64,000 nt of DNA from contig CAMDNW010000002.1 of assembly GCA_945903275.1 (NCBI GenBank), positions 75,829-139,828 of the forward strand, in the 5' to 3' direction. Below are positions 14,790-58,073 of this stretch, piece after piece; within the stretch, counting starts at the first letter, position 1; each line of letters begins with the position of its first letter. This DNA comes from Thermoflexus hugenholtzii JAD2. Its GTDB lineage: Bacteria; Chloroflexota; Dehalococcoidia; UBA2979. A model generated the notes under the pieces. It did not search any database. It had not been told where the DNA came from and worked only from the letters and a program-made list of their open reading frames with translations. Made by a program: the position numbers and the translations under genes.

Positions 14790-15199
14790 CTGCCCGGCGA
14801 CCACGAGCCGATCGCGGGGCCGCACGATGTTTCACTGCGCCCGATCGTGCTAGATGACCTCGACACGCTGCATCGCTGGCAGCACGAGGCCGAGGTTGTG
14901 CAGTGGTGGGGCGAGCCTACCGAGGATCGCGAGGAGTTCCGCGCGGACTACTTCGGCGGTACGAACTTCGGGGCGATCATAGGTACGTCCTCGATGATCG
15001 CCGCATTCGGCACAACAGCCGGGCCGCTCATCGCGGGCATTCTGGCCGACCGCACCGGCAACTACGAGTCCGGCTTCACCCTCCTCGCAGTCATGGCGGC
15101 CCTCGGCAGCATTTTTTCATCCTCGCGCGCCCGCCGAAGACGCCGGAGGACGCCGCGCGCATCGATGAGCCTGAGATGGAGGCGGTTACCGCGCGCTAA
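14790..15199 (+). pseudogene. chimeric gene remnant: AAC(6')-like GNAT N-terminal fragment fused in frame to an MFS-transporter C-terminal fragment, with a -1 frameshift in a T6 run
   Basis: Manual translation ...HDVSLRPIVLDDLDTLHRWQHEAEVVQWWGEP is a GNAT N-terminus. It is followed directly by GAIIGTSSMIAAFGTTAGPLIAGILADRTGNYESGFTLLAVMAALGSIF, typical MFS last-TM sequence. The MFS tail FFILARPPKTPEDAARIDEPEMEAVTAR continues in another frame (ORF 14903..15199) after the run cattttttcat. Confidence 0.6.
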
Positions 15200-15225
15200 C
15201 CGACTGCGTAGGTAAGTGAAGAGGC

Positions 15226-15265
15226 CCGCACCTTTCGGTGCAGGCCTCTTCACTTAGTTCTGGAA
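15226..15265. terminator. stem-loop between convergent acnA and the chimeric remnant
   Basis: agtgaagaggcccgcacc tttc ggtgcaggcctcttcact: an 18-bp stem with one G-U pair and a 4-nt loop, immediately 3' of the acnA stop. Confidence 0.5.
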
Positions 15266-15269
15266 CCGG

Positions 15270-17954
<2,685 letters not shown>

Positions 17955-18174
17955 CGAGTCACCCCCCCCCATTTATCGTCCCCGCCAGCACATCCAGTCG
18001 AGGTTCGTGCCGCACATCGTAGCGAAACAGCCGCCCGGAGACAGCCTGTAGCCCTGACAGTCTTCCGCTCGTAGGCGACCAGGCCGCTGGAGCCGTCTGA
18101 GCCGCACAGGAGCGCTCTCGGTTGAACGGCCCGAGACTGACCGCTACGCTGGTTTCTCGCGGGAGCCCCAACTG

Positions 18175-18251
18175 GGGCCGTTAGCTCAGTTGGTACGAGC
18201 GCTCGCTTCACACGCGAGAGGTCAGTGGTTCGAGTCCACTACGGCCCACCA
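18175..18251 (+). tRNA. tRNA-Val(CAC)
   Basis: Cloverleaf folded by eye. The 7-bp acceptor GGGCCGU/ACGGCCC pairs. Anticodon loop UUCACAC, T-loop TTCGAGT, encoded CCA. Confidence 0.85.
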
Positions 18252-18310
18252 TGGACGCTCGCGTGAGCAAGGTGTCACGGTCCGCAGCCGGGGCACTGGA
18301 TGATGGCCAC

Positions 18311-18397
<87 letters not shown>

Positions 18398-18445
18398 TTG
18401 TTTCGTATGGTTGAATTGGTCAGGTTGGTCTGTACGCGCTCGTAG

Positions 18446-18521
18446 CTCAGGGGATAGAGCGCAGCCCTGCGGAGGCTGAGGTCGTAGGTTCAAATCCTAC
18501 CGGGCGCACCATTCTTCGTTC
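18446..18521 (+). tRNA. tRNA-Arg with unusual GCG anticodon
   Basis: Acceptor GCGCUCG/CGGGCGC with one G-U pair, D-loop A20, anticodon stem CAGCC/GGCUG, loop CU-GCG-GA with G37, T-loop TTCAAAT, encoded CCA. Anticodon position read directly from the fold. Confidence 0.7.
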
Positions 18522-18859
18522 TGCTTTCAGGCTGCATCCCACATTCACCGCTCCCTTTGAACAGCGCCTGTATGCATGACGCCCGCGCGGTAACGGGTCT
18601 GTAACGCCCCATGGCGCATCTTGAAGATCGCTCATCGTCTGCTACAGGTACCTACTGCCTCAAGCTCCTGCAGTAGACGATGCGTCTCCACGCCGCGCGG
18701 GCGCATTGTGACGCGGCCCTCACCTCACTACGACACGATTAACGCCCTGACGTTGCGTACTAGTCCACTGCCTCATGCACCACTCTTCCCGGTTTCTGCG
18801 CCACTGTGTACATGGAGCGAGCAATTTGCCGTGTTCGCGCTCATCGTAATCGGAACACA

Positions 18860-19030
18860 CTGATCGACAGCGGAGTCTTCGCCGCACTTGTCACTCTTGG
18901 CGGCTGGCATAGCGTGTTGAGCGCGCTGCTCGCTTCAGCGAGCGGCTTCCTCGCCGGAGCGCTGAACTATTGGAACTCGCGCCTCACATTCCATGGCGCG
19001 AGGCGATCCAGGACCACCTTTGGGTGATTC
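18860..19030 (+). pseudogene. GtrA-family (polyprenyl-phosphate sugar flippase-like) N-terminal remnant
   Basis: LIDSGVFAALVTLGGWHSVLSALLASASGFLAGALNYWNSRLTF matches the first half of GtrA proteins (VDxG...N..WTF). It stops after ~55 aa, has no plausible start, and the second half is missing. Confidence 0.45.
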
Positions 19031-19126
19031 ATGGTGGTGACTAGCCTCGGTCTGTTGGTCGCAACAACCGTTTTTGCGGTTACACGATCGCTCTGGCCAC
19101 GCGCAGCCTCATCGCCTCTCCAGGAC

Positions 19127-21262: not shown

Positions 21263-22264
21263 GTGTTCCACTCGCTGTGGGCTATGTACAGTCCACAGGG
21301 GCAAGCGGGCAGCGTCGCAGCATGGCGCAGTGCGGAGCCAACAGCCGTGGAGCAGCGTGTCGAGGCATTCCTCCACTACATGTCCGCCGAGCGCGGCGCA
21401 TCCAAGAACACGATCGATGCGTACCGCAACGACCTCACCCGATTTACCGAATTCACCGCGGAGCACACCGGCAAAGACGGCGCGAGCGCATCCATCGAAA
21501 CGATCAGCCGCGACCTGATCACGAACTACATCCTCTGGCTGCGCAACGGGAACCAGTACGCCGCCGCGACCGTGGCGCGCAAAGTTGCGGCCGTGAAGTC
21601 GTTCTGCGCATTCCTGCTGGATCACGGCGAGATCACCAGCAACCCGACCGCCTCGATTGACTCACCACGCGCGCCGAAGTCGGTGCCGCACCCGATGAGT
21701 ACCACCGATGTCGACTCGCTGCTGCGGGAGCCGACGCGCCACGCCAGCCCCGAAGCGGTGCGCGATGCGGCGATGCTGGAACTCATGTACGCGACAGGGA
21801 TGCGCGTGACGGAACTAGTCTCGCTGAACATGGACAGCTTGCACCTGCCGCCCGGCCCAGCGTACGTCCGCTGCCTGGGCAAGGGTGCGAAGGAGCGCAG
21901 CATCCCCGTCTACGAGCAGGCTGTGGCCGCGGTGGAGACGTACCTCGACCACGCCCGCGCAGCGCTGCTGAAGGATCGCCAGCAGGCCGCGCTGTTCGTA
22001 AACCGGCGGGGCGAGCGGCTGACCCGGCAGGGCTTCTGGCTGATCCTGAAGGGCTACGCCAAGACCGCCGGCATCGACGCGAGCGTAACGCCGCACACAC
22101 TGCGCCATTCGTTCGCCACGCACATGCTGCGCGGCGGCGCGTCCGTGCGCGACGTGCAGGAGTTACTGGGCCACGCCAACGTCTCGACGACGCAGGTGTA
22201 CACGCAGTTGGCCGACGCACACCTCCGCGAGGTGTTTGAGACGGCGCATCCGCGAGCGCACTGA
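21263..22264 (+). CDS. xerD: site-specific tyrosine recombinase, Xer family (XerD-like)
   Basis: Catalytic R, H-x-x-R and Y blocks are present: ATGMRVTEL, HTLRHSFATHML, LLGHANVSTTQVYTQL. Confidence 0.85.
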   Translation: MFHSLWAMYSPQGQAGSVAAWRSAEPTAVEQRVEAFLHYMSAERGASKNTIDAYRNDLTRFTEFTAEHTGKDGASASIETISRDLITNYILWLRNGNQYAAATVARKVAAVKSFCAFLLDHGEITSNPTASIDSPRAPKSVPHPMSTTDVDSLLREPTRHASPEAVRDAAMLELMYATGMRVTELVSLNMDSLHLPPGPAYVRCLGKGAKERSIPVYEQAVAAVETYLDHARAALLKDRQQAALFVNRRGERLTRQGFWLILKGYAKTAGIDASVTPHTLRHSFATHMLRGGASVRDVQELLGHANVSTTQVYTQLADAHLREVFETAHPRAH

Positions 22265-25975: not shown

Positions 25976-26651
25976 TCAGACTCCCTGTGGCTCGGTGACG
26001 GCAGCGAGCAACTTCGCCTGAAACGCGTCAACATCGAGACTCATGATCTGGAGATCGTGGAACGCGCCGTCGTGATCCATGACGTGGCGCTTGAGCACCG
26101 CCTCGCGCTCGAAGACAGCGGTCGCCGACTGCTGGTCGGTGGTCATCTGCCTCATCATCTTCTTCACGCCACGCTGTTTTGCCATCGCGAACGCCTGCTT
26201 GGTGAACAGCCGCCCGGCGCCTTTGCCGCGCATGGAGGGCGAGACCACAATGCGTAGTTCGCCGAGGTGGCGTGTCCAGTTCAGCCCCTTTGAGACGACC
26301 GCGGTGTAGCCGACCAGTTCGCCACTGTGCAGTGCGAGCACCGTGTCGGAGAGGCTCTCGGCAGCGTCGCGCAGCCAGCCTTCGACCTGCGCCGGCTGGG
26401 TGATATCGCGGCGTAGGAACAGCAGGTCGTGTGGCGGGAGCGCGTGACGAACGCGAGGATCAGCGGGCCGTCGCCCTGTTCGAGGCGACGCAGGTGCAGG
26501 CTGGCCTCACCCGCGTGATATCCATCGGCAGCGCGAGCGCTTCGCGGGGCTGCTCGGCGGCAGCCTCGATCAACCGCCAGAGATCGCCCCACGAGGAAGC
26601 GATGGCATCGGCAGTCTCGGTGGTGGCCTGACTGGCAGTGGCGAAGTTCAT
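25976..26651 (-). pseudogene. GNAT acetyltransferase, frameshifted tandem paralogue of the gene at 27036..27710
   Basis: Three consecutive frames each match the intact downstream paralogue. MNF...AAEQPREALALPMDITRV (frame A) stops, GEASLHLRRLEQGDGPLILAFVTRS continues in frame B, and HDLLFLRRDITQPAQVEGW...GYTAVVSKGLNWTRH...LQIMSLDVDAFQAKL continues in frame C. That implies at least two frameshifts within ~120 bp. Confidence 0.6.
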
Positions 26652-27035: not shown

Positions 27036-27710
27036 CTATGACGGCCCGGCGAGCGCGGCTTGAGCGAGTAGTTCCATCGCCACCAGTTTCGCCTCGAAAT
27101 CTTCAATGTCGAGGCTCATGATCTGGAGGTCGTGCAAGGCGCCTTCCCGGTCGACGACCTGGTTGTGCAGGCGCGCCTCCTGTTCGAAGCCAAGCGTCTC
27201 GAAGATGCGCATCGCTGATTCCTGACCGACGGTCATCTGCGCAATCATCTTGCGAGCACCCTGTTCTTTCGCGATCGCGAAGGCTTGCTCGATAAGCAGC
27301 CGCCCGAGGTGCTTGCCGCGCATCGAGGCGGACACGAGCACGCGCAGTTCGCGCACGTGCCGTGTCCACGCCAAGCCGTCGGAAGCGACCGTTGCGTAGC
27401 CGACGATCACGGAGCCAGAGACGGCGACCACGGTGGTTAGGAGGCCCCGGCGCGCGTCATCAAGCCATGCGTCGATCTGCACCGGGTCGGTGATGTCGCG
27501 GCGGAGGAAGAGCAGGTCGCCGGGCGGCAGTGCCCGCGCGAACATCAGCAACGCCGGGGCGTCATCAGGCGCGAGATAGCGCAGGGTGACGGGGGCGCCT
27601 TCAACATCGATTTCTGTCGGCAGCGCGAGAGGCTGCCGGGGCTGGGCGATGGCTTGTTCAGCTACCTGCCAGCCAGGACCGAAGACCAGGGCACGTACCC
27701 ACCTAAACAT
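27036..27710 (-). CDS. GNAT-family acetyltransferase (intact paralogue)
   Basis: 224-aa ORF. GYATVASDGLAWTRHVRELRVLVSASMRGKHLGRLL carries the acetyl-CoA motif A (R-x-x-G-x-G/A). Confidence 0.8.
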   Translation of the reverse strand: MFRWVRALVFGPGWQVAEQAIAQPRQPLALPTEIDVEGAPVTLRYLAPDDAPALLMFARALPPGDLLFLRRDITDPVQIDAWLDDARRGLLTTVVAVSGSVIVGYATVASDGLAWTRHVRELRVLVSASMRGKHLGRLLIEQAFAIAKEQGARKMIAQMTVGQESAMRIFETLGFEQEARLHNQVVDREGALHDLQIMSLDIEDFEAKLVAMELLAQAALAGPS

Positions 27711-28944: not shown

Positions 28945-29056
28945 CGCGTACCTATAGGCGTGACATCGAGGGGCGCCCTGTGGCGCCCTTCGTGTTTCCG
29001 GCAGGACATCACAGGTGCGAGGCAAACTTTTCGAGTGCGCTTCGCGTTACAGGGAT

Positions 29057-29236
29057 ATGAGTACGACGACGAAAATCCGCCACATTGGCCTTAGTCTGGG
29101 TGCGCTGGCGCTGTTGGGCCTCGCTGCCGCGTGCTACGAGGCTGGGACCGCACACCGACGCCGCAGCCGACGGCCACGGTGCGCTCCGACCCGACGGCGA
29201 CGCCAGCAGGCACGCCGAGTGTCTCGCCTACCGTGA
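29057..29236 (+). CDS. possible small lipoprotein fragment (signal peptide with lipobox, Pro/Thr-rich tail in an alternative frame)
   Basis: MSTTTKIRHIGLSLGALALLGLAAAC has n-, h- and LAAAC lipobox regions. The downstream sequence reads TPTPQPTATV...PTATPGAG in the +1 frame, so the gene is either frameshifted or a remnant. Confidence 0.25.
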   Translation: MSTTTKIRHIGLSLGALALLGLAAACYEAGTAHRRRSRRPRCAPTRRRRQQARRVSRLP

Positions 29237-29382
29237 CGGCGACGGTCACCACATCGGCGCCCACCGCAACACCGGGGGCGGGGTGATCGGAGGTTTAGGA
29301 AGTTTTATATAGGTTGGGCGCGAATACAGCGACGCCGAGGCATCCTGCCTCGGCGTCGTGGTGTCGGGGCGCGTGCCGGGGT

Positions 29383-29547
29383 TTAGCCGACGGTGCGGGT
29401 GACGCGGGAGTCGATGAGTTCCGGCTCGGGGTTGTTGTCGTTGTGGGCGGTGAGGATGTGCTGACGGGCCTGGTGGCGCACCTGCGAGCGGACGGTGTTG
29501 GCGAAGGTAAAGCTGCAGTCGCACTTGTAGGTGTAGGTGTCAAGCAT
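29383..29547 (-). CDS. DUF1059-like small protein
   Basis: 54-aa ORF preceded by AAGGGGG-N6-ATG. The pattern YKCDCSFTFANT...HQARQHILTAH resembles the C-x-DC-x-F...H-x4-H pattern of DUF1059. Confidence 0.5.
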   Translation of the reverse strand: MLDTYTYKCDCSFTFANTVRSQVRHQARQHILTAHNDNNPEPELIDSRVTRTVG

Positions 29548-30016
29548 TAGGAACCCCCTTAGTCTCGGAAGGATTTGTAACGGAAAGCGGGGGGAAAGGG
29601 AAGGGGATGCGGGGGCGAAGCGGGGATCGGCGGGTGACGTGAGGTATCGTGCAAGGCCGAGGGATTCCGGAGGTGGTTCGACACGGTGCGCCGCAAGCGG
29701 CACTCCGGCTCACCACGAGCGGAGTGGACAAGGCGGGCTACGTATCGGGGTTGAGGTTCTTGTTGCGGCTGTGGCGGGCGAGTGTGTGGATGGTGTTTCA
29801 GTCGCTGCCGATCAGGACTTCTTTCTTTGCGCGAGACCAGCGTTTGATCTGCACTTCGGCAGCAAGGGCTTCGTCGCGGGTGGGGAAGGGTTGGCGTGTA
29901 ACAAGAACGGGAATTGGAGGATCGCACGCGAGATGAATCGCTCAGAGGTTGACTACACCGACCTCGAACAGTTTCTGAAGACGCTGGCTTCGGCAGCCAT
30001 GCCGTAAACTTCCATC

Positions 30017-33363: not shown

Positions 33364-34770
33364 ATGCGGCGCGGATGGCGCGGCCGCGAGCAGCGGCGCG
33401 CACATGCGAGGCCCATCGTGACGACATCGGCGGCACCAGTACCACCGGCACCTGAGCAGCGGACGGCGGCGGATTTGCCGTTGCCGGCGTCGCTGTTTGG
33501 GCGGGCGGTGTTTTATGGGTGGTACATCGTGGCGGCGGGGCTGGTGGCTTCGGCGCTGTCTTCGGGGATCCAAGCGTACGGCCTCGGGACGTTCATCCGG
33601 CCGATGACGGAGGAGTTGGGCTGGTCGCGGACGGACATCTCGCTGGGGCAGACGCTCTCGACGGCGGTGGGCGGGATCATCGGGCTGTTCATCGGGGGAC
33701 TGATCGACCGGCGGGGCGGGCGGATGCTGATGATCGTGGGCGCGATCATCGGAGGCGCGGGGTTCGTGGGCCTCGGGTTCGTGCAGACGCTGTGGCAGTA
33801 CTACCTGGTGAAGGCTGTGATCCTCACGATCGGCATGGCGGGGATGGGGCCGATGATCGTGAACGTCGCGATCTCGAACTGGTTCGTGCGGCGGCGCGGG
33901 CGCGCGATCGCGATCTCGGCGATGGGGATATCGGTAGGGGCGTTTGTGGTGCCGTCACTGGCGGCGTGGCTGATCGGACAGTTCGGGTGGCGCATCGCGT
34001 GGATGGTGTTTGGCGTGGCGGTGTGGGTGGTGATCATCCCGGTCGCGGCGGTGGTGATGCGGCGGCGGCCGGAGGACTTCGGCCTCGAACCCGATGACGG
34101 GTGGGTGTCGTCGCGGGCGGTGAGCGCGCTCGACCAGCGGCGGGCGGATGCGGACGCGCTGGAGTGGACGCGGCGGGAGGCGATGCGGACGCCGACGCTG
34201 TGGCTGTTGATCCTCACGTTCGGCCTGGCTGGCATGGGCGTGGGGGCGCTGTTGCTGCACCTGATCGCGTACCTCACGGACATCGGCTTCTCGACGGCTG
34301 AGGCAGCGTTCGCGTTTAGCATGATCGGGCTGTCGGGACTGATCTCGAAGCCGTTCTGGGGGCTGCTCGTGGAGCGGGTAGCGACTCGGTTTGTGGCAGC
34401 TGCGGAGTTCGTGCTGCTGGGGGTGGGGATCCTGCTGGTGATGATGGCACCGGGGCTGTGGCTGACAGCAGCGGCGATCTTCATCTTTGGGGTGGGCGTG
34501 GGCGGGACGCTGACGGTGCAGGAGACGGTGTGGGCGGACTACTACGGACGGAAGACGCTGGGGACGGTGCGAAGCATCGGGCGGCCGTTCACGATCGTGT
34601 CCAGCGCAGGCGGGCCGGTATTGGCGGGGATGGCGTACGACCTCGGCGGGTCGTACGAGGTGGCGTTCAGCGTGTTCGTGGTGGCGTACCTGGGGGCGGC
34701 GGCGCTGATCTTGTTCACGCCGGAGCCTCGGCATCCGGGGCGGGCCTCGGTGAGAGCGGCGAGCACGTGA
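33364..34770 (+). CDS. MFS transporter
   Basis: ~12 predicted TM helices with the MFS motif-A-like loop GGLIDRRGGRMLM after TM2. Confidence 0.8.
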   Translation: MRRGWRGREQRRAHARPIVTTSAAPVPPAPEQRTAADLPLPASLFGRAVFYGWYIVAAGLVASALSSGIQAYGLGTFIRPMTEELGWSRTDISLGQTLSTAVGGIIGLFIGGLIDRRGGRMLMIVGAIIGGAGFVGLGFVQTLWQYYLVKAVILTIGMAGMGPMIVNVAISNWFVRRRGRAIAISAMGISVGAFVVPSLAAWLIGQFGWRIAWMVFGVAVWVVIIPVAAVVMRRRPEDFGLEPDDGWVSSRAVSALDQRRADADALEWTRREAMRTPTLWLLILTFGLAGMGVGALLLHLIAYLTDIGFSTAEAAFAFSMIGLSGLISKPFWGLLVERVATRFVAAAEFVLLGVGILLVMMAPGLWLTAAAIFIFGVGVGGTLTVQETVWADYYGRKTLGTVRSIGRPFTIVSSAGGPVLAGMAYDLGGSYEVAFSVFVVAYLGAAALILFTPEPRHPGRASVRAAST

Positions 34771-34813
34771 GGTGGATACATGTAGCACATTTGGTGCTAC
34801 ATGTATCCACCTC
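34769..34813. promoter_or_regulatory. perfect 45-bp palindrome (20-bp arms, 5-nt centre): candidate toxin-antitoxin operator and/or terminator of the MFS gene
   Basis: gaggtggatacatgtagcac atttg gtgctacatgtatccacctc, read directly. It overlaps the MFS stop codon and the 5' end of the antitoxin reading frame. Confidence 0.6.
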
Positions 34814-35100
34814 GTATTCAGTATCGGTATCCGGAAACTGCGGCAGAACGCCAGCAAATACCTTCGCCGCGTCAAGGCGGGCGAGACGATCACGATCACC
34901 GACCGAGGTGAGCCAGTCGCAGAGATTCGGCCGTGAAGCCGACTAGATCGGTGGTTGCCCGGCTGATCGCGGAGAGGCGTGCGACGCCGCCGACGATGGA
35001 CATTCGGGAGACACTTGCGAAACACCCACCTGCGCAGCTGCGACCGGGAGAGCGGTCACTCAGCGAGCTATTGATGGAGATGCGTGACGAGGATTCCTGA
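34772..35100 (+). pseudogene. Phd/YefM-type (VapB-like) antitoxin, apparently frameshifted, start obscured
   Basis: Frame 2 reads ...IRKLRQNASKYLRRVKAGETITITDRGEPVAEIRP then stop at 34934 (the Phd/YefM N-terminal fold). Frame 1 continues VKPTRSVVARLIAERRATPP...LSELLMEMRDEDS, stopping 6 nt before vapC. Joining them needs a 1-nt (G) indel at ~34933. The only in-frame start is GTG 34772, inside the palindrome. Confidence 0.55.
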
Positions 35101-35106: not shown

Positions 35107-35493
35107 GTGTTCTACGCAGACTCATCAGCATTGACCAAACTCGTAGTACCAGAATCGGAATCAGATGCGCTCCGCGCATACAACGGCGACGACCACACCG
35201 TTGCATCCTCCCTATTGTCGATCACGGAACTGCTGCGAGCGGCGTACCGAACGAACACTGAACTCGACGGACAGGCACGGCGGGTACTCGCATCACTGCT
35301 GCTCATTGATATAGATCGAGCGGTACTGAAATCTGCAGCAACCCTTGCATCGCCAGCGTTGAGGACGCTCGACGCGATTCACGTCACGACGGCACTGACG
35401 CTGGGTAGAGACCTCGACGCGGTGCTCACGTACGACACTCGGATGAGCAAAGCAGCACGAAGTACGGGCTTCCGCGTGAAGGCTCCGGTGTAG
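35107..35493 (+). CDS. vapC: PIN-domain ribonuclease toxin
   Basis: MFYADSSAL (D5), SITELLRA (E), LRTLDAIHVTTAL (D) and LTYDTRM (D) cover the four PIN acidic residues. GTG start sits 6 nt after the antitoxin stop. Confidence 0.75.
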   Translation: MFYADSSALTKLVVPESESDALRAYNGDDHTVASSLLSITELLRAAYRTNTELDGQARRVLASLLLIDIDRAVLKSAATLASPALRTLDAIHVTTALTLGRDLDAVLTYDTRMSKAARSTGFRVKAPV

Positions 35494-35500
35494 AGCAGCC

Positions 35501-36607: not shown

Positions 36608-36697
36608 CGCTCGATCCCTTCGCGCGCCTCGTGAGTTGCTGAGGGAGTATACGGGGTGGGGGCGGGAAGTCCGGAAGGGCGGGGATGATTGTTTGCG

Positions 36698-36716
36698 ACA
36701 TCCGGCTGCCGGATGT
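36698..36716. promoter_or_regulatory. 19-bp perfect palindrome ACATCCGGCTGCCGGATGT upstream of the Gfo/Idh/MocA gene
   Basis: Read directly, ~90 bp 5' of the minus-strand start at 36607. Candidate operator. Confidence 0.25.
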
Positions 36717-37111
36717 GCCGGCGGTGGTGGCGGCGGTGGAGTGGGTGCCGGCGGCGTTCGCGGCTGCGTTATACCCGGAGCTCGTCGCGGACATCAAGCT
36801 TTAGACCGTCCAGCTAGTCGACATCGACACGATTGAACTCGGATCCTTCCTCCCAGATCACCACAACCCGATGCGATCGCAGGGGGTTGCGTCAGGACTG
36901 AGGGTCGGCTGGGCAGGGTAGCCTCGTTCGGCTGAGACGAGGAGCCCCGTGAGCTGCCCGAACTGCAACTCGAAGCCGCCGCTAAGATGGATGCGTTCCT
37001 CGCCGTGCGGAACCAGTGAGTACCGAGATGGGTACACAAGCCCTACAGGTAGCGGACAACAGGAGGTGCGGGCTACGAATGCCCTTATTCAGTAGCGTTC
37101 TTTCAGTTCGT

Positions 37112-37186
37112 GCCCTCGTAGCTCAGGGGATAGAGCATCGGTTTCCTAAACCGTGCGCGCAGGTTCGAGTCCTGCCGGGGGCACCA
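37112..37186 (+). tRNA. tRNA-Arg(CCT)
   Basis: Acceptor GCCCUCG/CGGGGGC, anticodon loop UUCCUAA, 4-nt variable loop, T-loop TTCGAGT, encoded CCA. Confidence 0.8.
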
Positions 37187-37423
37187 CGAAGGCTGTGAGT
37201 GGGGCAAGAGGCGCGGCATGACTCGATGGCTGGGGCGGCGGCGGGTGGCATCGAGGGGGCGCTGGTGCTGATGGCGCTGGTGTTCGCGGCAGGGTGTTCA
37301 GAGGTGTGCGAGACGGACACGGAGCGGGCAACGCGCCAGTTCGGCGGGCAGATGCAGCACATGATAGGAAGCGCGACCGTTGGGCTATCGACGCCGCGCC
37401 CGGTGACGTCGGTGAGTGCCCTG

Positions 37424-37684
37424 TCAACCTTTGGCCTGGTCGGCGGCGATGCGTCGGCTGATCTGGGCTTGGTAGCCGTCCAGGATCGCGCTGAGGATGC
37501 TTTCTCTGCCCATGGCGGCGACGGCGAGCGGGCCGAACTGCGTAACCATAGACACGAAGTCATCGGGAGTGAGCGGGGAGGTGAGAAGCGCGGCAGTCAA
37601 GGCTGAGGCGGTACTGACATGGGTGTACCCGCACCCACCATGCTCGGCGACCACGAACCACAGCGAAGTGACAGTAGTGGCCAC
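37424..37684 (-). CDS. hypothetical small ORF (doubtful)
   Basis: 86-aa ORF in the otherwise unassigned 650 bp between tRNA-Arg(CCT) and pepP. No motif recognised, and other ORFs overlap it. Confidence 0.2.
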   Translation of the reverse strand: MATTVTSLWFVVAEHGGCGYTHVSTASALTAALLTSPLTPDDFVSMVTQFGPLAVAAMGRESILSAILDGYQAQISRRIAADQAKG

Positions 37685-37839
37685 ACTTCATGAGGGCTTC
37701 GGACACGCGCCAACGATCACGACGATCTGCACCTATGCCGGGTCAGGAACCGGGCGCGGACCGGCCTGTCAGCAGGCGCGGTAGGCGCCCTCGACGCGAG
37801 TCTCGACGCAATGCGCTGGATATGTGAGGCTGCACGGCT

Positions 37840-39258
37840 ATGAGCACTACACGCACCCGACGCCGTCCTACTGCCGCTACTTCTACTGCCCGTGCAGCCT
37901 CGAAGACTGCGCGACCGGCACGCGGCACCGCGCCCGCCGCGGCCTCGCCGTTTGCGAAGCGGCGGGAGGCGCTGATGCGGCTGCTGATGCGTGATGCGGC
38001 GGCGAGCGGGGGGCCGGTGGCGGCGGTGTTCGCCTCGGGGCACGAGGCGAACCGGAACGGGGACGTGGACTACGAATTCCGGCAGCCCTCGACGTTCTAC
38101 TACCTGACGGGATTCGAAGAGCCGGAGGCGGTGGCGGTGCTGCGGCCGGGGCACAAGGAACCGTTCGTGCTGCTAGTACGGCCACACGATCCACAGATGG
38201 CGATCTGGGTGGGGACACGCGCGGGCATCGAAGGCGCGGTGCAGCGGTACGGCGCGTCCGCGTCGCATGCGATCGACGAGTTGGACGAGCAGTTGCCGAA
38301 GTTGCTGGCGGGGATGCGCACGGTCTACTTCTCGCTGGGGGCCGACGAGCGCATCGAGAAGTTAGTGTCGCGCTCGGTGGCGCAGAGCCGGGGAGCCGGG
38401 CAGCGTGGCGGCGTGGCGATCGAGCGGGTGGCGGACCCATTCCCATTCGTCTCGCAATTGCGCGTGATTAAGACGGCGGAGGAGATCGCGACGTTGCAGA
38501 GCGCGATCGACATCACCGGCGCGGGCATCGAAGCGACGATGCGTGCGACGAAGCCGGGGATGCACGAGTACGAGTTGCAGGCGATCCTGGAAGCCGAGTA
38601 CCGGCGGCTAGGGTCGCCGCGCAATGGGTTCCCCTCGATTGTCGCGACAGGGGCGAACGCGTGCACGCTGCACTACACAAGCAACCGCGCGCGGGTGGAG
38701 CATAACGACCTCGTGTTGCTGGATACCGGCGCGGAAGTGGACTACTACGGCGCGGACGTCTCACGCACGTATCCGGCGAGCGGGCGGTTCACGCCGGAGC
38801 AGCGGGCGGTGTACGACGTGGTGCACGAGGCGCAACGGCAGGCAATGGCAATCATCGCGCCGGGGGTGCGCTTCATAGAAGTACACGACCGAGCGGTGAA
38901 GGTGCTCGTCGATGGCCTGCGGCACCTCGGAGTGCTGGATGGTCGGACGGCGAAGTTGACGAAGGACGGGGCGTACCGGCCGTACTACATGCACGCGACG
39001 AGCCACTGGCTGGGCATGGATGTCCACGATGTGGGCGCGTACCGCGAAGGCGGGGCATCAGTGGCGTTGCGGCCGGGGATGGTGCTGACGGTGGAGCCGG
39101 GGCTGTACATCGCGCCGGACTCGGATACGCCTCGTGCGTTGCGCGGGATCGGCGTGCGCATCGAGGACGACGTGCTGGTGACGCGGGACGGGCACCGGAA
39201 CCTATCGGTGGGGATCACCTCGGACGCGGACGAGTTAGAGGCGATCGTCCGGGGGTAG
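37840..39258 (+). CDS. pepP: Xaa-Pro aminopeptidase (M24B)
   Basis: N-domain FYYLTGFEEPEAVAVL, then the pita-bread metal ligands HYTSN...DTGAEVDYYGADVSRT...HWLGMDVHD...E. N-terminal ~35 aa are R/T/A-rich. Confidence 0.88.
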   Translation: MSTTRTRRRPTAATSTARAASKTARPARGTAPAAASPFAKRREALMRLLMRDAAASGGPVAAVFASGHEANRNGDVDYEFRQPSTFYYLTGFEEPEAVAVLRPGHKEPFVLLVRPHDPQMAIWVGTRAGIEGAVQRYGASASHAIDELDEQLPKLLAGMRTVYFSLGADERIEKLVSRSVAQSRGAGQRGGVAIERVADPFPFVSQLRVIKTAEEIATLQSAIDITGAGIEATMRATKPGMHEYELQAILEAEYRRLGSPRNGFPSIVATGANACTLHYTSNRARVEHNDLVLLDTGAEVDYYGADVSRTYPASGRFTPEQRAVYDVVHEAQRQAMAIIAPGVRFIEVHDRAVKVLVDGLRHLGVLDGRTAKLTKDGAYRPYYMHATSHWLGMDVHDVGAYREGGASVALRPGMVLTVEPGLYIAPDSDTPRALRGIGVRIEDDVLVTRDGHRNLSVGITSDADELEAIVRG

Positions 39259-39364: not shown

Positions 39365-41473
39365 GTGTTGCGCCGAGGTTGTTCAATGCCCGACAAGTAC
39401 GGATCGCGGTCTGGTTCAGAGATCACCGAGATCGCCTCGGGCACTGCGCGTGCATGGATAGCCACGCGGGCGGGCGCGGTAGTCGTGGTGCCCGTATTCA
39501 ATGAGCGCGAGAGCGTGCACACGGTGCTCGACGACATCGTGCGGTGGGGCGCGGGGACGATCCTGATCGTGGACGACGGATCGACGGACGGGTCGGCGGG
39601 TATCCTAGATGACTGGGCGGCGGGGAAGCCGGGCGTGCGGGTGCTGCACCTGCCGGAGAACCACGGCAAGTCGGCCGCGCTGCGGGCGGCGTGGGGGCAG
39701 TTGCGAGATGACCTCGATCGCGACGCGGTGAGCACGGAGACAGCCGTCATCACCATCGACGCTGATGGACAGCACGACCTCACGGCGTTGGGCGCGCTGG
39801 TGGCGCGCCTCGATGACCTCGGGGCCGACGCGGTGATCGCGCGGCGGGATATGAGGTACCACGGGCGATACAAGCGGGCGGGCAACTGGGTGATGACCGC
39901 GCTTGGCAGCCTATGCGGCGGCACGCGGTTGCATGACATCGAAAGCGGCTACCGCGTAGTGCGACTGGGGCCGCTGCTGCACGCGCACGAGTTCTACAAG
40001 GGGCGTCGGTACAGCGAAGCGGCGGAGCAGGTGGTCGTACTAGGACGCCTTGGCTACCGCGTGGACAACGAGTACATGGTGCAGGTGCCGGTGGAGCGCT
40101 CGCGGACGCGGCTGCGCGACGCGGTGAACCATGCGGTGTCGATGTGCGCAGCATGGTATCGGGTGCTGTGCTGGCGCGAGACGCCTCGGGAGCAGCGGTC
40201 GAGCCTCGGCGCGTGGTCAGCGGCGCTACTACTGGGGTCGTTCGTGGGGCTGCTGGCGGTGATGCTGACGCATCGCGTGTACCTGGGGAACGACAGCGCA
40301 CAGTCGTACGCGCATGTATGGCACATCGCGCGATCGCTGTTCGGGGGGGAGGGGTTGCCACTACACATGGCGAGCCTCGAATCTGGGCGGGCGTTCACCT
40401 TCCCGTACGCGGCGATCCCGTGGCTACCGACGGCGCTGGTGTACCCGGTGTTGGGCGACTGGGCGGTGACAGCGAGCATGGTGCTCGGCGTGGTGCTGCT
40501 TGCGGTAGGTATCTGGCGATGGCTACCGCGCACGGCAAACCCGCTGATGACAGCGCTGTTCCTGCTCAACCCGCAGTTGTGGATGGGGGTCGCGCAGTTC
40601 CAGTTGCCGACGGTGTGGGCGTTCGCTTTCGTATGCTTCTCAGCAGCGGCGTTCGACCGGGAGCAGCCGCGCCGAGGAACGGCGCTGGCGGTCGCGGCGC
40701 TGGTCGCGCATCCGCTCATGGGTGCGACGGGGCTGCTCCTGACCGTGCTCCTACACATCGGAGAGCGGCGGCGGGCGCCAGTGCTGCGGGTCGCGCTGCT
40801 GGGGCTGGCGGCTGTGATCACAGCGCCCGCAGTGTGGATATTCGCCTCGATGCCGTTGGTGGAGCAGGTGGGATATAGCGCACTGCTCGTGCCGTTGCAG
40901 GCGACGCTGACACGACTGAGCATGCTGTGGTGGCCGTGGCTGGTGCAGCGCTTCGGTGCGTGGTCGCTGCGCGTCCACGCGCCGCTGTTGTTGATCGGGC
41001 TGGTGTTCGTCGCGCATAACGCGAGCATCCGTCACCCGCATAACCTGTGGGATTACACCCAGCCGAGGTTCGCGGACTATATCGAGGCTGGACAGGTCGA
41101 CACCGGCACTCGCTACCGGGTGCTAACGATGACCGAGCATGAAGATGGCATGGTTCAGTTGATCCGCGCAGGTGGGACGCTCGCACACGAGTTCTTCGAC
41201 GAAAGCATCAAGCGTGACTCATTCAGGACGACCGAGAATTACCGCTGTTTCCTAGGGCTGAAGCGAACGACGCACGTGCTCGTGAGCGCGGAGTGGCAAC
41301 GGCGGGGCTACACAGACGAGTTGCGGCTGCTCGACCAGATGGTGGAAGACAGCTACGCGACGTTGGCGTTCCGCGGGCTAGCGGGGACGCTGGACTACAA
41401 GCTTCAGGGCAACGCACCGTTATCCTGCCCGGGCGTCGCATTCCCCGCCGGCGCGCCGCGAACAGCGCAATGA
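39365..41473 (+). CDS. GT2-family (polyprenyl-phosphate sugar synthase-like, DPM1/GtrB/ArnC type) glycosyltransferase fused to a ~400-aa polytopic membrane domain and a C-terminal soluble domain
   Basis: The N-terminus shows the GT-A fold with VVVVPVFNE, IVDDGSTDG, DADGQHD (DxD) and the ESGYRVV catalytic-base region. Residues ~270-540 contain ~10 hydrophobic helices, followed by ~160 soluble residues. Confidence 0.8.
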   Translation: MLRRGCSMPDKYGSRSGSEITEIASGTARAWIATRAGAVVVVPVFNERESVHTVLDDIVRWGAGTILIVDDGSTDGSAGILDDWAAGKPGVRVLHLPENHGKSAALRAAWGQLRDDLDRDAVSTETAVITIDADGQHDLTALGALVARLDDLGADAVIARRDMRYHGRYKRAGNWVMTALGSLCGGTRLHDIESGYRVVRLGPLLHAHEFYKGRRYSEAAEQVVVLGRLGYRVDNEYMVQVPVERSRTRLRDAVNHAVSMCAAWYRVLCWRETPREQRSSLGAWSAALLLGSFVGLLAVMLTHRVYLGNDSAQSYAHVWHIARSLFGGEGLPLHMASLESGRAFTFPYAAIPWLPTALVYPVLGDWAVTASMVLGVVLLAVGIWRWLPRTANPLMTALFLLNPQLWMGVAQFQLPTVWAFAFVCFSAAAFDREQPRRGTALAVAALVAHPLMGATGLLLTVLLHIGERRRAPVLRVALLGLAAVITAPAVWIFASMPLVEQVGYSALLVPLQATLTRLSMLWWPWLVQRFGAWSLRVHAPLLLIGLVFVAHNASIRHPHNLWDYTQPRFADYIEAGQVDTGTRYRVLTMTEHEDGMVQLIRAGGTLAHEFFDESIKRDSFRTTENYRCFLGLKRTTHVLVSAEWQRRGYTDELRLLDQMVEDSYATLAFRGLAGTLDYKLQGNAPLSCPGVAFPAGAPRTAQ

Positions 41474-42732: not shown

Positions 42733-42900
42733 AATGCCTCGTGTTGTGCACTTCGAGATTCACGCGGACGACCATGAACGGGCGATGAAATTCTATGGCG
42801 ATGTCCTAGGATGGACATTTCAGGAGTACTTCCCCGACTACTGGGGGGTGGCTTTGCCTCAAAACCCCATGATCAGCGGGACTTCTGAGGCAGGCGGCTG
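42733..42900 (+). pseudogene. truncated VOC/glyoxalase N-terminal fragment
   Basis: MPRVVHFEIHADDHERAMKFYGDVLGWTFQEYFPDYWGVAL is the first glyoxalase half-domain, terminating after 55 aa where the 3' end overlaps the transposase remnant. Confidence 0.5.
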
Positions 42901-43107
42901 ACTTTTGGGGCAGTCCTGCCAGAACGCCGGTTCGATGCCGAGTTCGTACACCGACTGGATCAGGACAACGATGTTGTGACAGAGAAACTTCATCAGCGCC
43001 TCGTTGATCTGGGCCGTGGGAATCTTAGCCCGCGACGCCAAGTCATCGAAGCGAATATCTGAGCCTGCTGAGCGGTGTGCAACACCCTGCGACGCGCCTA
43101 CGCTGCC
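42859..43107 (-). mobile_element. ISAs1-family (IS4 superfamily) transposase C-terminal remnant
   Basis: Minus-strand translation ...SDIRFDDLASRAKIPTAQINEALMKFLCHNIVVLIQ aligns with the ISAs1 C-terminal block F(R/D)ED.SR...G.AAEN(L/F)A.LRR.ALNLL. An upstream in-frame stop lies at 43108, and there is no N-terminal part or inverted repeats. Confidence 0.45.
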
Positions 43108-46884: not shown

Positions 46885-47108
46885 AGTAATGGAGTACCGC
46901 GTAACCCTCGGGACGCATCCCGAGGGTTACGCGGTAGCGTGCTTCTATACCACTCTCAGAAACGTCAGCGATAAGCATGGGTGCCGTTTGTGACCGCAGA
47001 GGACAGTGACAGCGGGTACCTCGGTGTGGTGTTTGAGACAGGACATCAGTCATGTGTTGCCGTGCGTTGTAGCATGCGCGGCAACACATGACTGATGTGG
47101 AGGTCGCC

Positions 47109-51036: not shown

Positions 51037-51341
51037 CGGGGGGTCTCATCGCTAGCGGTGGCGCGCCGGGAACAGGGCTATTAAGCCTGACGGCGCGGCC
51101 TGCTGGCAAGTCGGAGATTGTTAGGACGGTTCTCGTCTCCCATCGCGAGGTATCGTCGCGTGACGGCGAGCCATATCAGGTTAAGCAATTGTGCGGTGAG
51201 ACCGATGGAACGGATAGAAATCGTCACCGTCGTTCGCTCTGGGCATCCTGCACGCGAGAGACAAGGTGAGGGTGATCTCGCATGGGTCCACTCCGTCGCG
51301 GGCCGCTCCAATGCGCCGGAAGGCCATGCTACGCTCGGAGT

Positions 51342-51728
51342 ATGACAGCCGAACCACCTCGTGAGCCCGTTCGCGCGGAGGACGATCCATTGCTGGACTG
51401 GCATTCGGACGCGCGCGTGATCATGGATTCGTATGCAAACGACATCGCGTACCGGCAGATCGCTGGAACACAGATAGAGTTGCTGCGCCTCGGTGAGCGT
51501 GCGGAAGGGATCGCGGCTGCGGAGGTGGCGGTGCTATTCGAGCGACATGTGCAGCGATGCGGTGAAACGGGACACCTCGACCTCGCGTTCACGCGGGAGT
51601 CGTTCGTGGGGTTCCTCGTGTCGCGAGTGCTGCTGCGCGCCTCGGACAATAGGTACGTGACGACGACCGTGGGTCACGGGATGTTGCAGTACATCGACGA
51701 GCGGGAGTTGCCAGATAAGGCGCTCTGA
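51342..51728 (+). CDS. hypothetical protein
   Basis: 129 aa from ATG 51342 (MTAEPPREPV). No recognisable motif. Confidence 0.4.
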   Translation: MTAEPPREPVRAEDDPLLDWHSDARVIMDSYANDIAYRQIAGTQIELLRLGERAEGIAAAEVAVLFERHVQRCGETGHLDLAFTRESFVGFLVSRVLLRASDNRYVTTTVGHGMLQYIDERELPDKAL

Positions 51729-53657: not shown

Positions 53658-53661
53658 CACG

Positions 53662-54231: not shown

Positions 54232-54234
54232 TGC

Positions 54235-55424: not shown

Positions 55425-56024
55425 GTGACGACCGTAAGCGCCGAAGAACTCATCGACCCCGAGGCGATCCAGAACGCCATCTTGCCACCGCTGATCCGCG
55501 TGGTCGAAGAGGCTGCCGTTGGCGAGCGCTGGGCGCTGGTGGGCGCTACCGCCTGCCGGTTGCAGGGCGTCTACGCCACCTCGCCGAACCTGGAATTCAT
55601 CACCGCCGAGCCGCCGCTACACTCGCTGGCCGAGATGCTGGATATCCCCTCGGAATGGGGGCGAGGGACGCACCTAGCCGCCCAGCGACTGCACTTCATG
55701 CGCGGGCGTGTGCCGGTGTTCGTGTTCGGGAACCCGGTGTTCCACGGGCGGTACGACTCACTCACGCCAATGGAGATCCCGTCGCTCTGGGACTCCCGTG
55801 TGCGCGTAGATGTTGAGGGCGGCAGCGGGGTGCTGGTCACGCCGCTGGAATGGGAGTTGCTGCTAGCGGTGGTGCTGGAGTCCTCCGCGCGGCTGGACGC
55901 GGTGCGGAAGCACCTGCGCGATCATGGCTTCGACAACCGGCTGCTGACGCGGCTGCTGCGCGAGGGGCATGTGGGGTCGGCGACCGAGGAAGCCGTGTGG
56001 CGGGAAGTCGAGACTGAGGCGTAG
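55425..56024 (+). CDS. hypothetical protein, possibly a degenerate nucleotidyltransferase-fold domain
   Basis: LVGATACRLQGV-x9-NLEF resembles the G(S/G)-x9-13-DxD NTase motif but with the acidic residues replaced. Divergent from the DtxR gene. Confidence 0.35.
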   Translation: MTTVSAEELIDPEAIQNAILPPLIRVVEEAAVGERWALVGATACRLQGVYATSPNLEFITAEPPLHSLAEMLDIPSEWGRGTHLAAQRLHFMRGRVPVFVFGNPVFHGRYDSLTPMEIPSLWDSRVRVDVEGGSGVLVTPLEWELLLAVVLESSARLDAVRKHLRDHGFDNRLLTRLLREGHVGSATEEAVWREVETEA

Positions 56025-56221
56025 CCCTTCCCCTCGCGTTTCACCTCGATAGCAGGGATACCCACACCGACCGCACGATTTTTGATCGCTTGTCGATATG
56101 CATGGTGATATGTAGCGCTTGAGGCGGCGCCACAGCCAGTAGATTGGTCTCAGTCAGGCGGGGGCGCCACCGGAGCCGAGCTGCAACAAGCTCCGAGGGC
56201 GGGCAGTTCCATCCTGATAAG

Positions 56222-56255
56222 AATCGCGCGGCTTCGGTACCGAGGCCGCGCGATT
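56222..56255. terminator. near-perfect 34-bp palindrome between convergent genes
   Basis: aatcgcgcggc ttcggtaccgag gccgcgcgatt (two G-U positions), followed by the T-containing tail tgctatt. Confidence 0.5.
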
Positions 56256-56283
56256 TGCTATTCCCAGGCGATTCCGTGAGGCG

Positions 56284-57405
56284 CTAGCGGCTCTTTCTTA
56301 GCAGCGGCTGCGCTTCCCTGCCGAGGGTGTCGAGGCGCTTGCGGAGGGCCTCGACATACGTCTCGGCCTTCGGGACGGTCTCCAACATGCGGACGAAGAT
56401 ACGGACGAGACCGTCAAGGTCACCGAGGTGGACGGTCTCGGCGGCGACGCGGTTGCGCGGACCGGCGTTGTGGTAGTTGCCGAGGGCAATGCAGGCAGCG
56501 CCGGTCTCGTAGCCGTAGAGGTCGTAGACAGTAGCCTCGGTGGTACCGCCGTCCATGAGTTTGCGCTGGTAACGGAAGGCGGGGTCGGCGGCGGCGAGTT
56601 CGTTCGCGAGGCCGACCATCCAGCGGGTCATCATGGGCGAGAAGATGTGGATGGCGTCGCCGACGCGGACAATCGGGCCGCCACCCTGCACCGCGCGGCC
56701 TCCAGCCATCGAAGACGTCTCCACAGCGACGATGAGCACGTCCTCTGGCAGTAATCGTGCGCGGCCGACGACCGATGCACCACGCAGGCCGACTTCCTCG
56801 GCGCGGGTGAAGAGGCCGATCAGGGTGCCCAGAGTGCGTGCGGCAACAGCGCGGTCGAGGGTCGCGAGGACGGCGACGCAGCCGGCGAGGTCATCGCAGC
56901 CGCGGGCCTGCACGATGTCGCCGCGGAAGCGGCAGGCAGGCACATCCCAGAGTGCGAGGTCGCCGGCCTCGGCGGTCGCGCCAGCATCGAGTTGGGCAGT
57001 GGCGGTGGCGATGGTCTTGCGCTCGCTCGCCTGCACGGTGGTAATGGTGGCCGTGCCGAGGTCGTCGAGGTCTTGTGCGCCGAAGAGGCGGAGACACTCG
57101 CCCTTGCCGTAAGCGGCGGAGAGGCCGCCACGGAACTCGAGGGTGAGGCGGCGGCCACGGACGGCGGTGACGACGAAGCCGGGATGGTCAATATGCGCGC
57201 CAAGGACGAGCGCACGGCGGGGGCGGCCACGCTGGTAGCGGATGTATGCGTTGCCGTAGTCGTCTTCGGCGTATTCGAGCCCGCGCTCAGCCGCGAAGGC
57301 GCGGAGATAGGCGCGGACGCCGTGTTCGAGGTAAGAGACGGTGGGGATAGAGACGATCTCGGAGACGAGATTGCGGAGCGGTTTCGGTTCATGTGCAGGG
57401 GTCAT
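56284..57405 (-). CDS. M42-family metallopeptidase (FrvX/glutamyl aminopeptidase-like)
   Basis: LVLGAHIDHPGF, ARGCDDLAGC and the HxDxxG-type metal ligand arrangement. ATG 57405 has GGAG 8 nt upstream. The six-frame ORF is over-extended to 57753. Confidence 0.75.
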   Translation of the reverse strand: MTPAHEPKPLRNLVSEIVSIPTVSYLEHGVRAYLRAFAAERGLEYAEDDYGNAYIRYQRGRPRRALVLGAHIDHPGFVVTAVRGRRLTLEFRGGLSAAYGKGECLRLFGAQDLDDLGTATITTVQASERKTIATATAQLDAGATAEAGDLALWDVPACRFRGDIVQARGCDDLAGCVAVLATLDRAVAARTLGTLIGLFTRAEEVGLRGASVVGRARLLPEDVLIVAVETSSMAGGRAVQGGGPIVRVGDAIHIFSPMMTRWMVGLANELAAADPAFRYQRKLMDGGTTEATVYDLYGYETGAACIALGNYHNAGPRNRVAAETVHLGDLDGLVRIFVRMLETVPKAETYVEALRKRLDTLGREAQPLLRKSR

Positions 57406-57479
57406 GGTTTCTCCTCGGTCAGCCGCGCGCGTGGCGGCATCGTACACGCGAAGCCGGGAGGGTCGAGTAGGCTGAGATT

Positions 57480-58073
57480 GTGGACGAGACACCGATCGGC
57501 GAACGCCTCGACATCCGCGAAGTAGGACACGACAACTGGAACGACTTCGTGCGGCTGTTCGAGGGGCGAGGCTCGCCGTCGTACTGCTACTGCCTGGTGT
57601 GGCGGGAGCCCAGCGAGGCGCGGAAAAGCCTCGACCTCGCGGGGCGGCGGGCGTTGACGCAGCAGCAGGTCGCGGGCGTGACGCCGTTGGGGCTGCTCGC
57701 ATACCTCGACGGCGTGCCTGTGGGCTGATGCTCGGTCGCGCCACGCAAGACATACCGGCCGCTAGGCGGCCTCAACTATCCAGCAGAAACAAGGGTGTGG
57801 GCGGTGGTGTGCTTCTTCGTGCAGAGGGCGCTGCGCGGACGGGGCGCGGCGACGGCGCTACTAGAGGCGGCTGTCGCGACGGCCAAGCGCCACGGCGCGC
57901 AGGTGGTGGAGGCGACGTCGGTAGACCCCGATTCGCCATCGTTCCGCTTCATGGGGTACCGGTCCATGTTTCGGGCGGCGGGGTTTGAAAATGTACAGCC
58001 CGCCGAGAGCCGACGGCACGTGATGCACCGGGTGTTGAGCGCGCCCCTACGCCGTCGCCTCGCTAGCACGTAG
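57480..58073 (+). pseudogene. GNAT-family acetyltransferase interrupted by an in-frame TGA at a conserved Trp position
   Basis: ORFs 57480..57728 and 57795..58073 are in the same frame. Manual translation across the gap reads ...LAYLDGVPVG*CSVAPRKTYRPLGG...RVWAVVCFFVQRALRGRGAATALLEA. GNATs of this subgroup have G-W-C at the stop position (TGG to TGA). Confidence 0.6.

Follow-up and report, generated by a model that had tools for sequence, protein, structure and literature searches.

To understand whether a series of broken genes in a metagenome-derived bacterial genome reflects gene decay or faulty sequence, a 64-kb stretch of contig CAMDNW010000002.1 (assembly GCA_945903275.1), below called the window, was analyzed for its disrupted loci. 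These loci are a chimeric relic made of GNAT-like and MFS transporter sequences, a GtrA-family relic, two GNAT pseudogenes, a split Phd/YefM-type antitoxin gene, and a VOC fragment adjoining a transposase stub. The original prediction listed six lesions and left two explanations side by side, ongoing decay of accessory genes or localized assembly or consensus errors, with a lean toward error. All six were found at or near the positions originally given, and the lesion numbers 1 to 6 used throughout follow that list in window order. The data showed that the lesions are real, reproducible, common to two lineages of the organism and neutrally evolving, and that the ancestral intact gene is known for lesion 1. 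It is therefore very probable that accessory genes of the window's uncultured Chloroflexota are in genuine decay, which is fixed in the population. The decay alternative is borne out by the identity across assemblies, by a lineage about 1.1% apart, by the neutral substitutions and by the intact MFS genes of relatives, while the lean toward error did not hold.

The G+C content is 63–68% throughout the window (66% overall), and the window contains five tRNAs (ARAGORN and Rfam) and 47 intact protein genes, with an intact-gene coding density of 83%. The closest reference genomes, identified with an aconitase probe, were three uncultured Chloroflexota metagenome-assembled genomes (MAGs) with 84–85% amino-acid identity ('Dehalococcoidia bacterium SO_2016_LW3_48', 'Chloroflexota bacterium ELA490' and 'Chloroflexi bacterium ZH-3nov15-188'), and the next were two further MAGs, in which the aconitase identity was 69–70%. 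Same-species contigs were gathered by exact-protein look-ups across public assemblies. They included MEGAHIT-style contigs from at least nine ENA samples (ERZ272...), the NCBI assembly GCA_947445005.1, and the Logan assemblies ERR4405442, ERR5863101/07/17, SRR13399485 and SRR12053438/39. A second, divergent lineage was represented by ERZ27257033, GCA_005802045.1 and SRR8894381, and was compared with the window over 25,787 positions.

The contigs from at least 15 samples of several studies were 99.3–100% identical to the window, with zero differences within any lesion. The second lineage differed at 293 of the compared positions (1.1%), and each of the six lesions is also present there with an unchanged frame structure, which means that the lesions are older than the split of the two lineages. 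This lineage additionally carries private damage, which indicates that the decay is still proceeding. The MFS gene at 33364–34770, intact in the window, has there lost 215 nt between two GGGCGGGCGG repeats, with a resulting frameshift. This seventh, lineage-specific lesion (deletion site 33499–33723, + strand) was found in ERZ27257033 and GCA_005802045.1 (contigs L107 and L108), where a 348-aa open reading frame (ORF) is left. The other private changes are a 5-nt insertion in the GNAT relic of lesion 6 (at 57836) and the loss of the ATG of the VOC fragment.

Over tens of kilobases, contigs from numerous samples of several studies were 99.9–100% identical, and only one other lineage, about 1% apart, was seen, so that the population is strikingly clonal for an environmental bacterium. 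Some contigs showed differences bunched in short tracts and were identical in the rest (38154–38263 in L007; 15537–15585 and 19343–20837 in L004), a pattern suggestive of recombination or of a mosaic assembled from co-occurring strains. Contig L004 was considered as an independent divergent strain and set aside, because the bunching of its 96 differences in two tracts suggests recombination or a mosaic, so that it is uninformative on lesions 1 and 2.

These comparisons bear directly on the explanation that the lesions are errors of the MAG, in the form of homopolymer indels, miscalled bases or chimeric joins. It is true that the source is a metagenome assembly, and that one frameshift lies inside the T6 run at 15112. 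However, the lesions are identical in many samples that were independently assembled in different studies and in the lineage about 1% apart, lesions 1, 2 and 5 are missing-sequence lesions, and the remaining frameshifts are outside homopolymers. Three lesions had been predicted to lie at or near homopolymers, which does not agree with the sequence, as only the T6 run at 15112 among the ten runs of at least six bases in the window coincides with a lesion. There are about five frameshifts in all, and the single one located in a homopolymer is reproduced in all assemblies. The C9 run at 17962–17970 (G9 on the aconitase strand) was rejected as an aconitase lesion, because the true start of aconitase (ATG; MPDVTTS...) follows 5–6 nt downstream of it, and the longer ORF from 17972 is an artifact of ORF listing; the run is probably a part of the aconitase ribosome-binding site. 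The neutral substitution pattern of the relics, described below, is also not producible by errors. Hence, we regard sequence error as an extremely improbable explanation of the lesions.

The comparison of substitutions between the two lineages showed that the relics evolve neutrally. They accumulated 38 substitutions in 2389 nt (1.59%), which are distributed evenly over the codon positions (13:12:13), with a nonsynonymous to synonymous ratio of 26:12. The intact genes accumulated 185 substitutions in 18,738 nt (0.99%), with a codon position distribution of 48:35:102 and a nonsynonymous to synonymous ratio of 88:97. The pooled substitution density of relics is thus 1.6-fold that of intact genes, and the two classes differ in density (Fisher P=0.010), in the nonsynonymous/synonymous ratio (P=0.021) and in the share of third positions (P=0.021). 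All indels between the lineages are outside of intact genes, with the exception of the 215-nt MFS deletion. The loci therefore combine the features by which pseudogenes are recognized, which are homology to known families, a disabling lesion in comparison with intact homologues, reproduction of this lesion across assemblies, and, in the pooled data, neutral evolution.

Lesion 1 (14772–15215, + strand) is a chimeric relic defined by Pfam and NCBIfam matches and by syntenic relatives. A GNAT-like piece (about 14829–14930) is followed in frame by about 60 terminal codons of an MFS gene (14931–15116), and the conserved MFS tail ('...FILARPPK...', 15119–15199) is in another frame as a result of a 1-nt loss in the T6 run 15112–15117. 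The predicted GNAT/MFS fusion with a frameshift in a T6 run is thus present, although the run is at this position and not at 14932. The MFS remnant, in which about 85 last codons are left in total, matches MFS_1 with E=1.8e-9. The GNAT-like piece matches positions 4–36 of Acetyltransf_8 (E=1.5e-4; 21.8 bits versus a cut-off of 27) and three AAC(6') NCBIfam models with E values from 6.6e-4 to 4e-3, all under the curated cut-offs, and a word-based homologue search with this piece returned nothing. The sequence of lesion 1 is identical in five assemblies, and its frame structure is the same in contigs L109/L110 of the divergent lineage.

The comparison with orthologous loci, which had been proposed as a check, was informative for this lesion. 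The relatives represented by contigs L024, L026 and L027 keep a full-length MFS gene (437, 489 and 431 aa, respectively) in the same position, between the M1 aminopeptidase and aconitase genes, which indicates that the window lost about 1.1–1.3 kb of the gene. Their C-terminus (...IRADYFGG...LGSFFF...) is 50–67% identical to the remnant. Hence, lesion 1 resembles the syntenic MFS_1 transporters of the oxalate/formate or monocarboxylate type in its position and in its last two helices and tail, while it differs from them in lacking about 340–400 N-terminal residues, in being joined to an unrelated GNAT-like piece, and in the frameshift of the tail. A 44-nt G+C-rich hairpin (15213–15256), probably a bidirectional terminator, is located between the convergent MFS relic and aconitase gene. 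In the divergent lineage its central 16 nt are exactly inverted, so that the TTTC loop became GAAA, and CGCACC...GGTGCA became TGCACC...GGTGCG, which looks like a hairpin-flip or template-switch mutation.

Lesions 3 and 6 are GNAT pseudogenes with different kinds of damage. Lesion 3 (25979–26651, − strand; Pfam Acetyltransf_1) was aligned by tblastn to its functional tandem paralogue, an intact 224-aa GNAT (27036–27710, − strand; Acetyltransf_1 E=1.5e-11), which is called in all assemblies. The two are 56% identical, with the relic distributed over three frames and with a 5-aa gap. The damage consists of frameshifts at about 26509 and about 26441–26448, in accordance with the at least two frameshifts predicted for this tandem copy, and of a 15-nt in-frame deletion at about 26122, which removes a part of the GNAT core. 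This structure is the same in contigs L006, L007 and L008, and in L111–L113 of the divergent lineage. Lesion 6 (57480–58073, + strand) is a 197-codon gene, which was aligned with 12 homologues. Its nearest intact relatives are only 59–64% identical to it. Its in-frame TGA (57726–57728) is located at the Trp of the motif ...PV(A/G)WCS(V/I)AP..., and, consistently with its description as a conserved Trp in the original prediction, this residue is Trp in every full-length homologue aligned. Lesion 6 is also the clearest single relic in terms of substitutions, with 11 in 496 nt, eight of them nonsynonymous, versus 11 in 1344 nt of flank (P=0.026).

The TGA of lesion 6 raises the question of whether some of the lesions could be functional, with TGA read as Trp or Sec, with programmed frameshifting, or with genes working in two pieces. 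Recoding is unlikely, because TGA is the normal terminator of 15 of the 47 intact genes, because the Rfam scan of the window found tRNAs only, because the relic of lesion 6 has the same TGA and an additional frameshift, the 5-nt insertion at 57836, in contig L104 of the divergent lineage, and because the substitutions of the relics are distributed flatly over codon positions. The excess of nonsynonymous changes in lesion 6 also argues against its function. The part of this explanation that concerns genes in two pieces finds its best case in lesion 4, where the relevant data are described.

The composition at third codon positions (GC3) divides the relics into two classes. The GC3 of intact genes is 0.83 ± 0.04, with a minimum of 0.73, and that of relics 1, 3 and 6 is 0.81–0.85, which indicates that these three are derived from native genes. 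The low class consists of relic 2 (0.69), relic 4 (0.70–0.74), the ORF of a PIN-domain toxin next to relic 4 (0.61) and the VOC fragment of lesion 5 (0.65), and their codon composition suggests that they were imported, belonged to mobile elements or are older. The low-GC3 relics agree with the published view of many prokaryotic pseudogenes as failed transfers (PMC522871).

Lesion 2 (18854–19084, + strand) is a relic of the GtrA family, which matches positions 9–88 of 117 of Pfam PF04138 (GtrA_DPMS_TM) with E=6e-7, above the cut-off. It was predicted as a half-gene, and a truncated GtrA is indeed present, but it is not a clean half, because about three-quarters of the gene remain, with an in-frame TGA (19025–19027) and with both domain ends absent. 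In contig L114 of the divergent lineage it is unchanged except for two substitutions. A cluster of tRNA-Val(cac), tRNA-Leu(cag) and tRNA-Arg(gcg) genes (18175–18511, + strand; ARAGORN and Rfam) is located directly 5' of this relic. The spacer between the aconitase gene and uvrC differs between the relatives, with a putA-like gene in L024, and ArsR and cupredoxin genes in L027, which fits an insertion/deletion hot spot. The search for att-like direct repeats of tRNA 3' ends or inverted repeats of insertion sequences found none around lesions 2, 4 and 5.

Lesion 5 consists of two overlapping remnants. The first (5a; 42734–42901, + strand) comprises the first 36–45 or so residues of a truncated VOC/bleomycin-resistance-like protein (Pfam Ble-like_N positions 1–35 of 41, E=5.8e-13), the start codon of which is gone in the divergent lineage (42733A>C). 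The second (5b; 42859–43056, − strand), which overlaps the end of the VOC fragment, is a stub with about 65 last codons of a DDE transposase, recognized by its homologues P0123–P0127. The stub itself had no Pfam or NCBIfam match. Its homologues, which are few and are fragments themselves, match the IS5-family model NF033579 (E down to 5e-11) and DDE_Tnp_1. In one of them, P0126, the match extends over positions 186–288 of 289 of NF033579, under the curated cut-off, and the window stub keeps only the part after the Y-R-E signature. By transitive homology the stub can be described as IS5-like. The VOC fragment and the transposase C-terminal stub abutting it had thus been correctly predicted, while the assignment of the stub to ISAs1 was rejected, because no ISAs1 model was among the matches at E up to 1 and the homologues match IS5. 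The stub homologues resemble IS5-family insertion sequences in their C-terminal Y-(2)-R-(3)-E region and transposase end, and the stub adjoins a truncated target gene, as an insertion would be expected to leave it. In comparison with complete IS5 elements only about 65 codons are left, neither inverted repeats nor a target duplication could be found, and the stub has no direct family match.

Lesion 4 (34820–35100, + strand) is a Phd/YefM-type antitoxin gene (Pfam PhdYeFM positions 3–39 of 74) split by a 1-nt frameshift; a frameshifted antitoxin had been predicted here. The N-part (34820–34933) ends at a TGA (34934–34936), and the C-part (34936–35097), in the +1 frame, contains 54 residues that match residues 51–100 of roughly 100-aa antitoxins. 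When joined, the two parts align without gaps to the 102-aa antitoxin P0135, with 55% identity over 93 aa, which shows that they are colinear with full-length antitoxins. There is no homopolymer at the frameshift site, and the frameshift is the same in contigs L006, L007, L107 and L108. No convincing start is present near the conserved N-terminus, and the sole in-frame start is GTG 34772. This codon and the stop of the upstream MFS gene are overlapped by a perfect inverted repeat (34769–34813) of 20 nt, with a loop of 5 nt, identified by repeat search, which is probably an operator or terminator. In the divergent lineage the loop of this repeat is reverse-complemented and the closing C-G pair is changed to T-A, so that, with the one at 15213–15256, two hairpins are flipped between these lineages.

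Downstream of the antitoxin there is an ORF of a PIN-domain, VapC-like toxin (35107–35496, + strand; Pfam PIN E=2.9e-9, full domain), which is uninterrupted and contains all four acidic residues (D5, E41, D89, D109), but is called as a gene in no assembly. This cassette resembles a Phd/YefM-VapC (PIN) type II module in the order of antitoxin and toxin, the few-base spacing, the upstream palindrome, the Phd/YefM N-domain and the colinear C-part. It differs from such a module in the frameshift that splits the antitoxin, in the lack of a clear antitoxin start, in its low GC3, and in that the cassette is not called as genes. A type II toxin–antitoxin system is defined by an adjacent antitoxin and PIN toxin that are both intact, while here only the PIN ORF is intact.

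On the other hand, a GTG at 34933 opens the C-terminal ORF and overlaps the stop of the N-terminal ORF (GTGA), and it is conceivable that the antitoxin could work as two translationally coupled pieces, which would hold the PIN toxin in check. Such an arrangement would explain why the toxin remains intact, and the uninterrupted PIN ORF with its four acidic residues is in accordance with it. Over 387 nt of the PIN ORF the two lineages differ by just three substitutions, two of them synonymous, although these counts are too small to show constraint. The absence of a convincing antitoxin start and the disregard of the PIN ORF by gene callers speak against a functional split gene. Moreover, the sole stand-alone homologue of the antitoxin C-part, P0131, is an orphan fragment with neither a Phd nor a PIN partner. 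When these data are considered together with those on TGA, functional recoding or split genes appear very unlikely as an explanation for any of the lesions, and decay is preferred for lesion 4 as well. An orphan 56-aa homologue of the antitoxin C-half lies on an unrelated JGI metagenome contig (L115, 130–300), directly after the end of a membrane-protein gene and with no Phd or PIN gene beside it, and represents a further relic of this antitoxin family.

The original prediction also described the density of disrupted genes as unusual. Set against the 47 intact genes, the six disrupted loci make up about 11% of the gene-like loci, or 14% when the fused pieces are counted apart. In the survey of prokaryotic pseudogenes the background was 1–5%, with group means of 3.3–3.9%, and a few free-living or pathogenic genomes reached 10–12% (PMC522871). 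The fraction in the window is thus above the background, as had been claimed, although the binomial P for six disrupted loci, which is 0.012 if a background of 3.6% is assumed and 0.048 if it is 5%, is post hoc and concerns one window. Hence, the density of relics is moderately elevated, and this elevation is unproven genome-wide. The coding-density baseline in the relatives was not reliable when obtained with a GC3-based gene caller, which missed too many genes.

It could be considered that the lesions are real but that their density is ordinary, because similar small relics are present in the intergenic DNA of any free-living bacterium, and the window happens to hold two or three variable accessory spots. 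The P value of 0.048 at a 5% background, the genomes with 10–12% of pseudogenes, the gaps of more than 400 nt in the syntenic region of relatives, and the fact that three of the six loci are short relics usually ignored by annotation pipelines all agree with this explanation. It is less consistent with the fraction of 11–14%, which exceeds the 1–5% background, with the 83% coding density of intact genes, and with the observation that all gaps longer than 500 nt between intact genes, except 28945–30016, hold a relic or tRNAs. We consider that an ordinary density has a substantial chance of being correct, somewhat short of even. The opposite possibility is that this uncultured Chloroflexota lineage is early in an episode of accelerated gene loss. 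It is suggested by a pseudogene fraction several-fold over the background, by near-clonal populations, and by the independent gain of lesions in sister lineages, but it is unlikely. If it were true, this lineage would show, in a free-living environmental bacterium, a decay comparable to that of recently host-restricted bacteria.

Several other regions of the window were considered in this context. The excepted gap, 28945–30016, is a 1.07-kb region between gap (GAPDH) and ffh, in which the sole called gene is a 54-aa ORF. The six-frame Pfam search (E up to 0.1) found nothing there, nor in 36608–37225, 37607–37974, 51037–51389, 56025–56283 and 46885–47108. Two candidate relics in this gap were left unsupported, a frameshifted lipoprotein (about 29040–29300, with an ORF for a lipoprotein-like signal peptide at about 29040), which had no Pfam match, and a GIY-YIG-like C-terminal relic (about 29800–30010, with the motif at about 29800–29900 on the minus strand), which had no Pfam or NCBIfam match. 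The xerC-like gene shows a single-base C/- polymorphism at 21310 between assemblies that are otherwise nearly identical (L002, L003, L007, L008), which changes its called length between 333 and 305 aa. A frameshift of this gene was ruled out, because the site is upstream of the conserved N-terminus and hence intergenic. The C-terminal part of a 695-aa GT2 glycosyltransferase (40648–41473) contains 19 substitutions versus the divergent lineage, of which 16 are nonsynonymous, with codon positions 7:7:5, and it is a relaxed or fast-evolving stretch inside an otherwise intact gene.

Some observations speak against the decay of accessory genes as a complete explanation. The substitution counts per lesion are small, so that significance is reached only when the lesions are pooled, and neither lesion 2 nor lesion 3 alone is above the genome average. 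Simple decay does not account for an intact-looking PIN toxin next to a broken antitoxin. The family matches of the N-terminal piece of lesion 1 identify it only weakly as GNAT, and all assemblies compared are short-read metagenome assemblies. Finally, the claim of unusual density concerns one window chosen afterwards, and its baseline was obtained in 2004 by a different method.

The data can be combined into a sequence of events in which the order of steps for each lesion and the foreign origin of the low-GC3 relics are inferred. In the native class, with host-like codon bias, the genes would have been disabled by ordinary mutations. The MFS transporter would have lost about 1.1–1.3 kb of its 5' part and afterwards 1 nt in the T run, the redundant tandem GNAT copy would have acquired two frameshifts and a 15-nt deletion, and the third GNAT (lesion 6) a TGG-to-TGA nonsense change. 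The low-GC3 class probably consists of imported or mobile-element genes, which were truncated or split and would now be eroding, including the GtrA relic beside the tRNA cluster and the Phd/PIN toxin–antitoxin cassette. The VOC fragment would have been cut by an IS5-type insertion, which was itself later mostly deleted. The lesions arose before the split of the two lineages about 1% apart, and the decay has continued since, as each lineage has further lesions of its own. Relaxed selection on dispensable genes together with the bacterial deletion bias could be the driving force of these changes.

The practical meaning of these results is that the six loci should be annotated as pseudogenes, and that they should be neither 'corrected' nor treated as MAG errors. 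The small ORFs which gene callers emit at the lesions (122, 121, 63, 82, 55 and 44 aa) are pieces of relics and not new proteins. The comparison of public metagenome contigs across samples can decide between an error and a real pseudogene without raw reads. The window also offers a clean small case of ordinary gene decay, in which a repeat-mediated deletion, a redundant paralogue that was lost, an eroding toxin–antitoxin cassette and insertion sequence, and relics next to tRNA genes are seen together. Should the density prove elevated over the whole genome, it would be of moderate interest for the understanding of gene loss in environmental Chloroflexota.

Overall, what is seen in the window is ordinary bacterial pseudogene formation, of which it is a somewhat dense example in a little-studied phylum. 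The relics are similar to those described in bacterial pseudogene surveys (Liu, Harrison, Kunin and Gerstein 2004, PMC522871; Kuo and Ochman 2010, PMC2916853) in being disabled copies of known families located in intergenic DNA. As in these surveys, the damage consists of frameshifts, nonsense changes, truncation and insertion of an insertion sequence, and it is enriched in accessory, transposition-related and probably transferred genes, the last judged by a GC3 of 0.61–0.74 versus 0.83. The differences from the surveyed genomes are that the local fraction of disrupted loci is about 11%, and that the relics are fixed across two environmental Chloroflexota lineages, rather than in a pathogen or symbiont.

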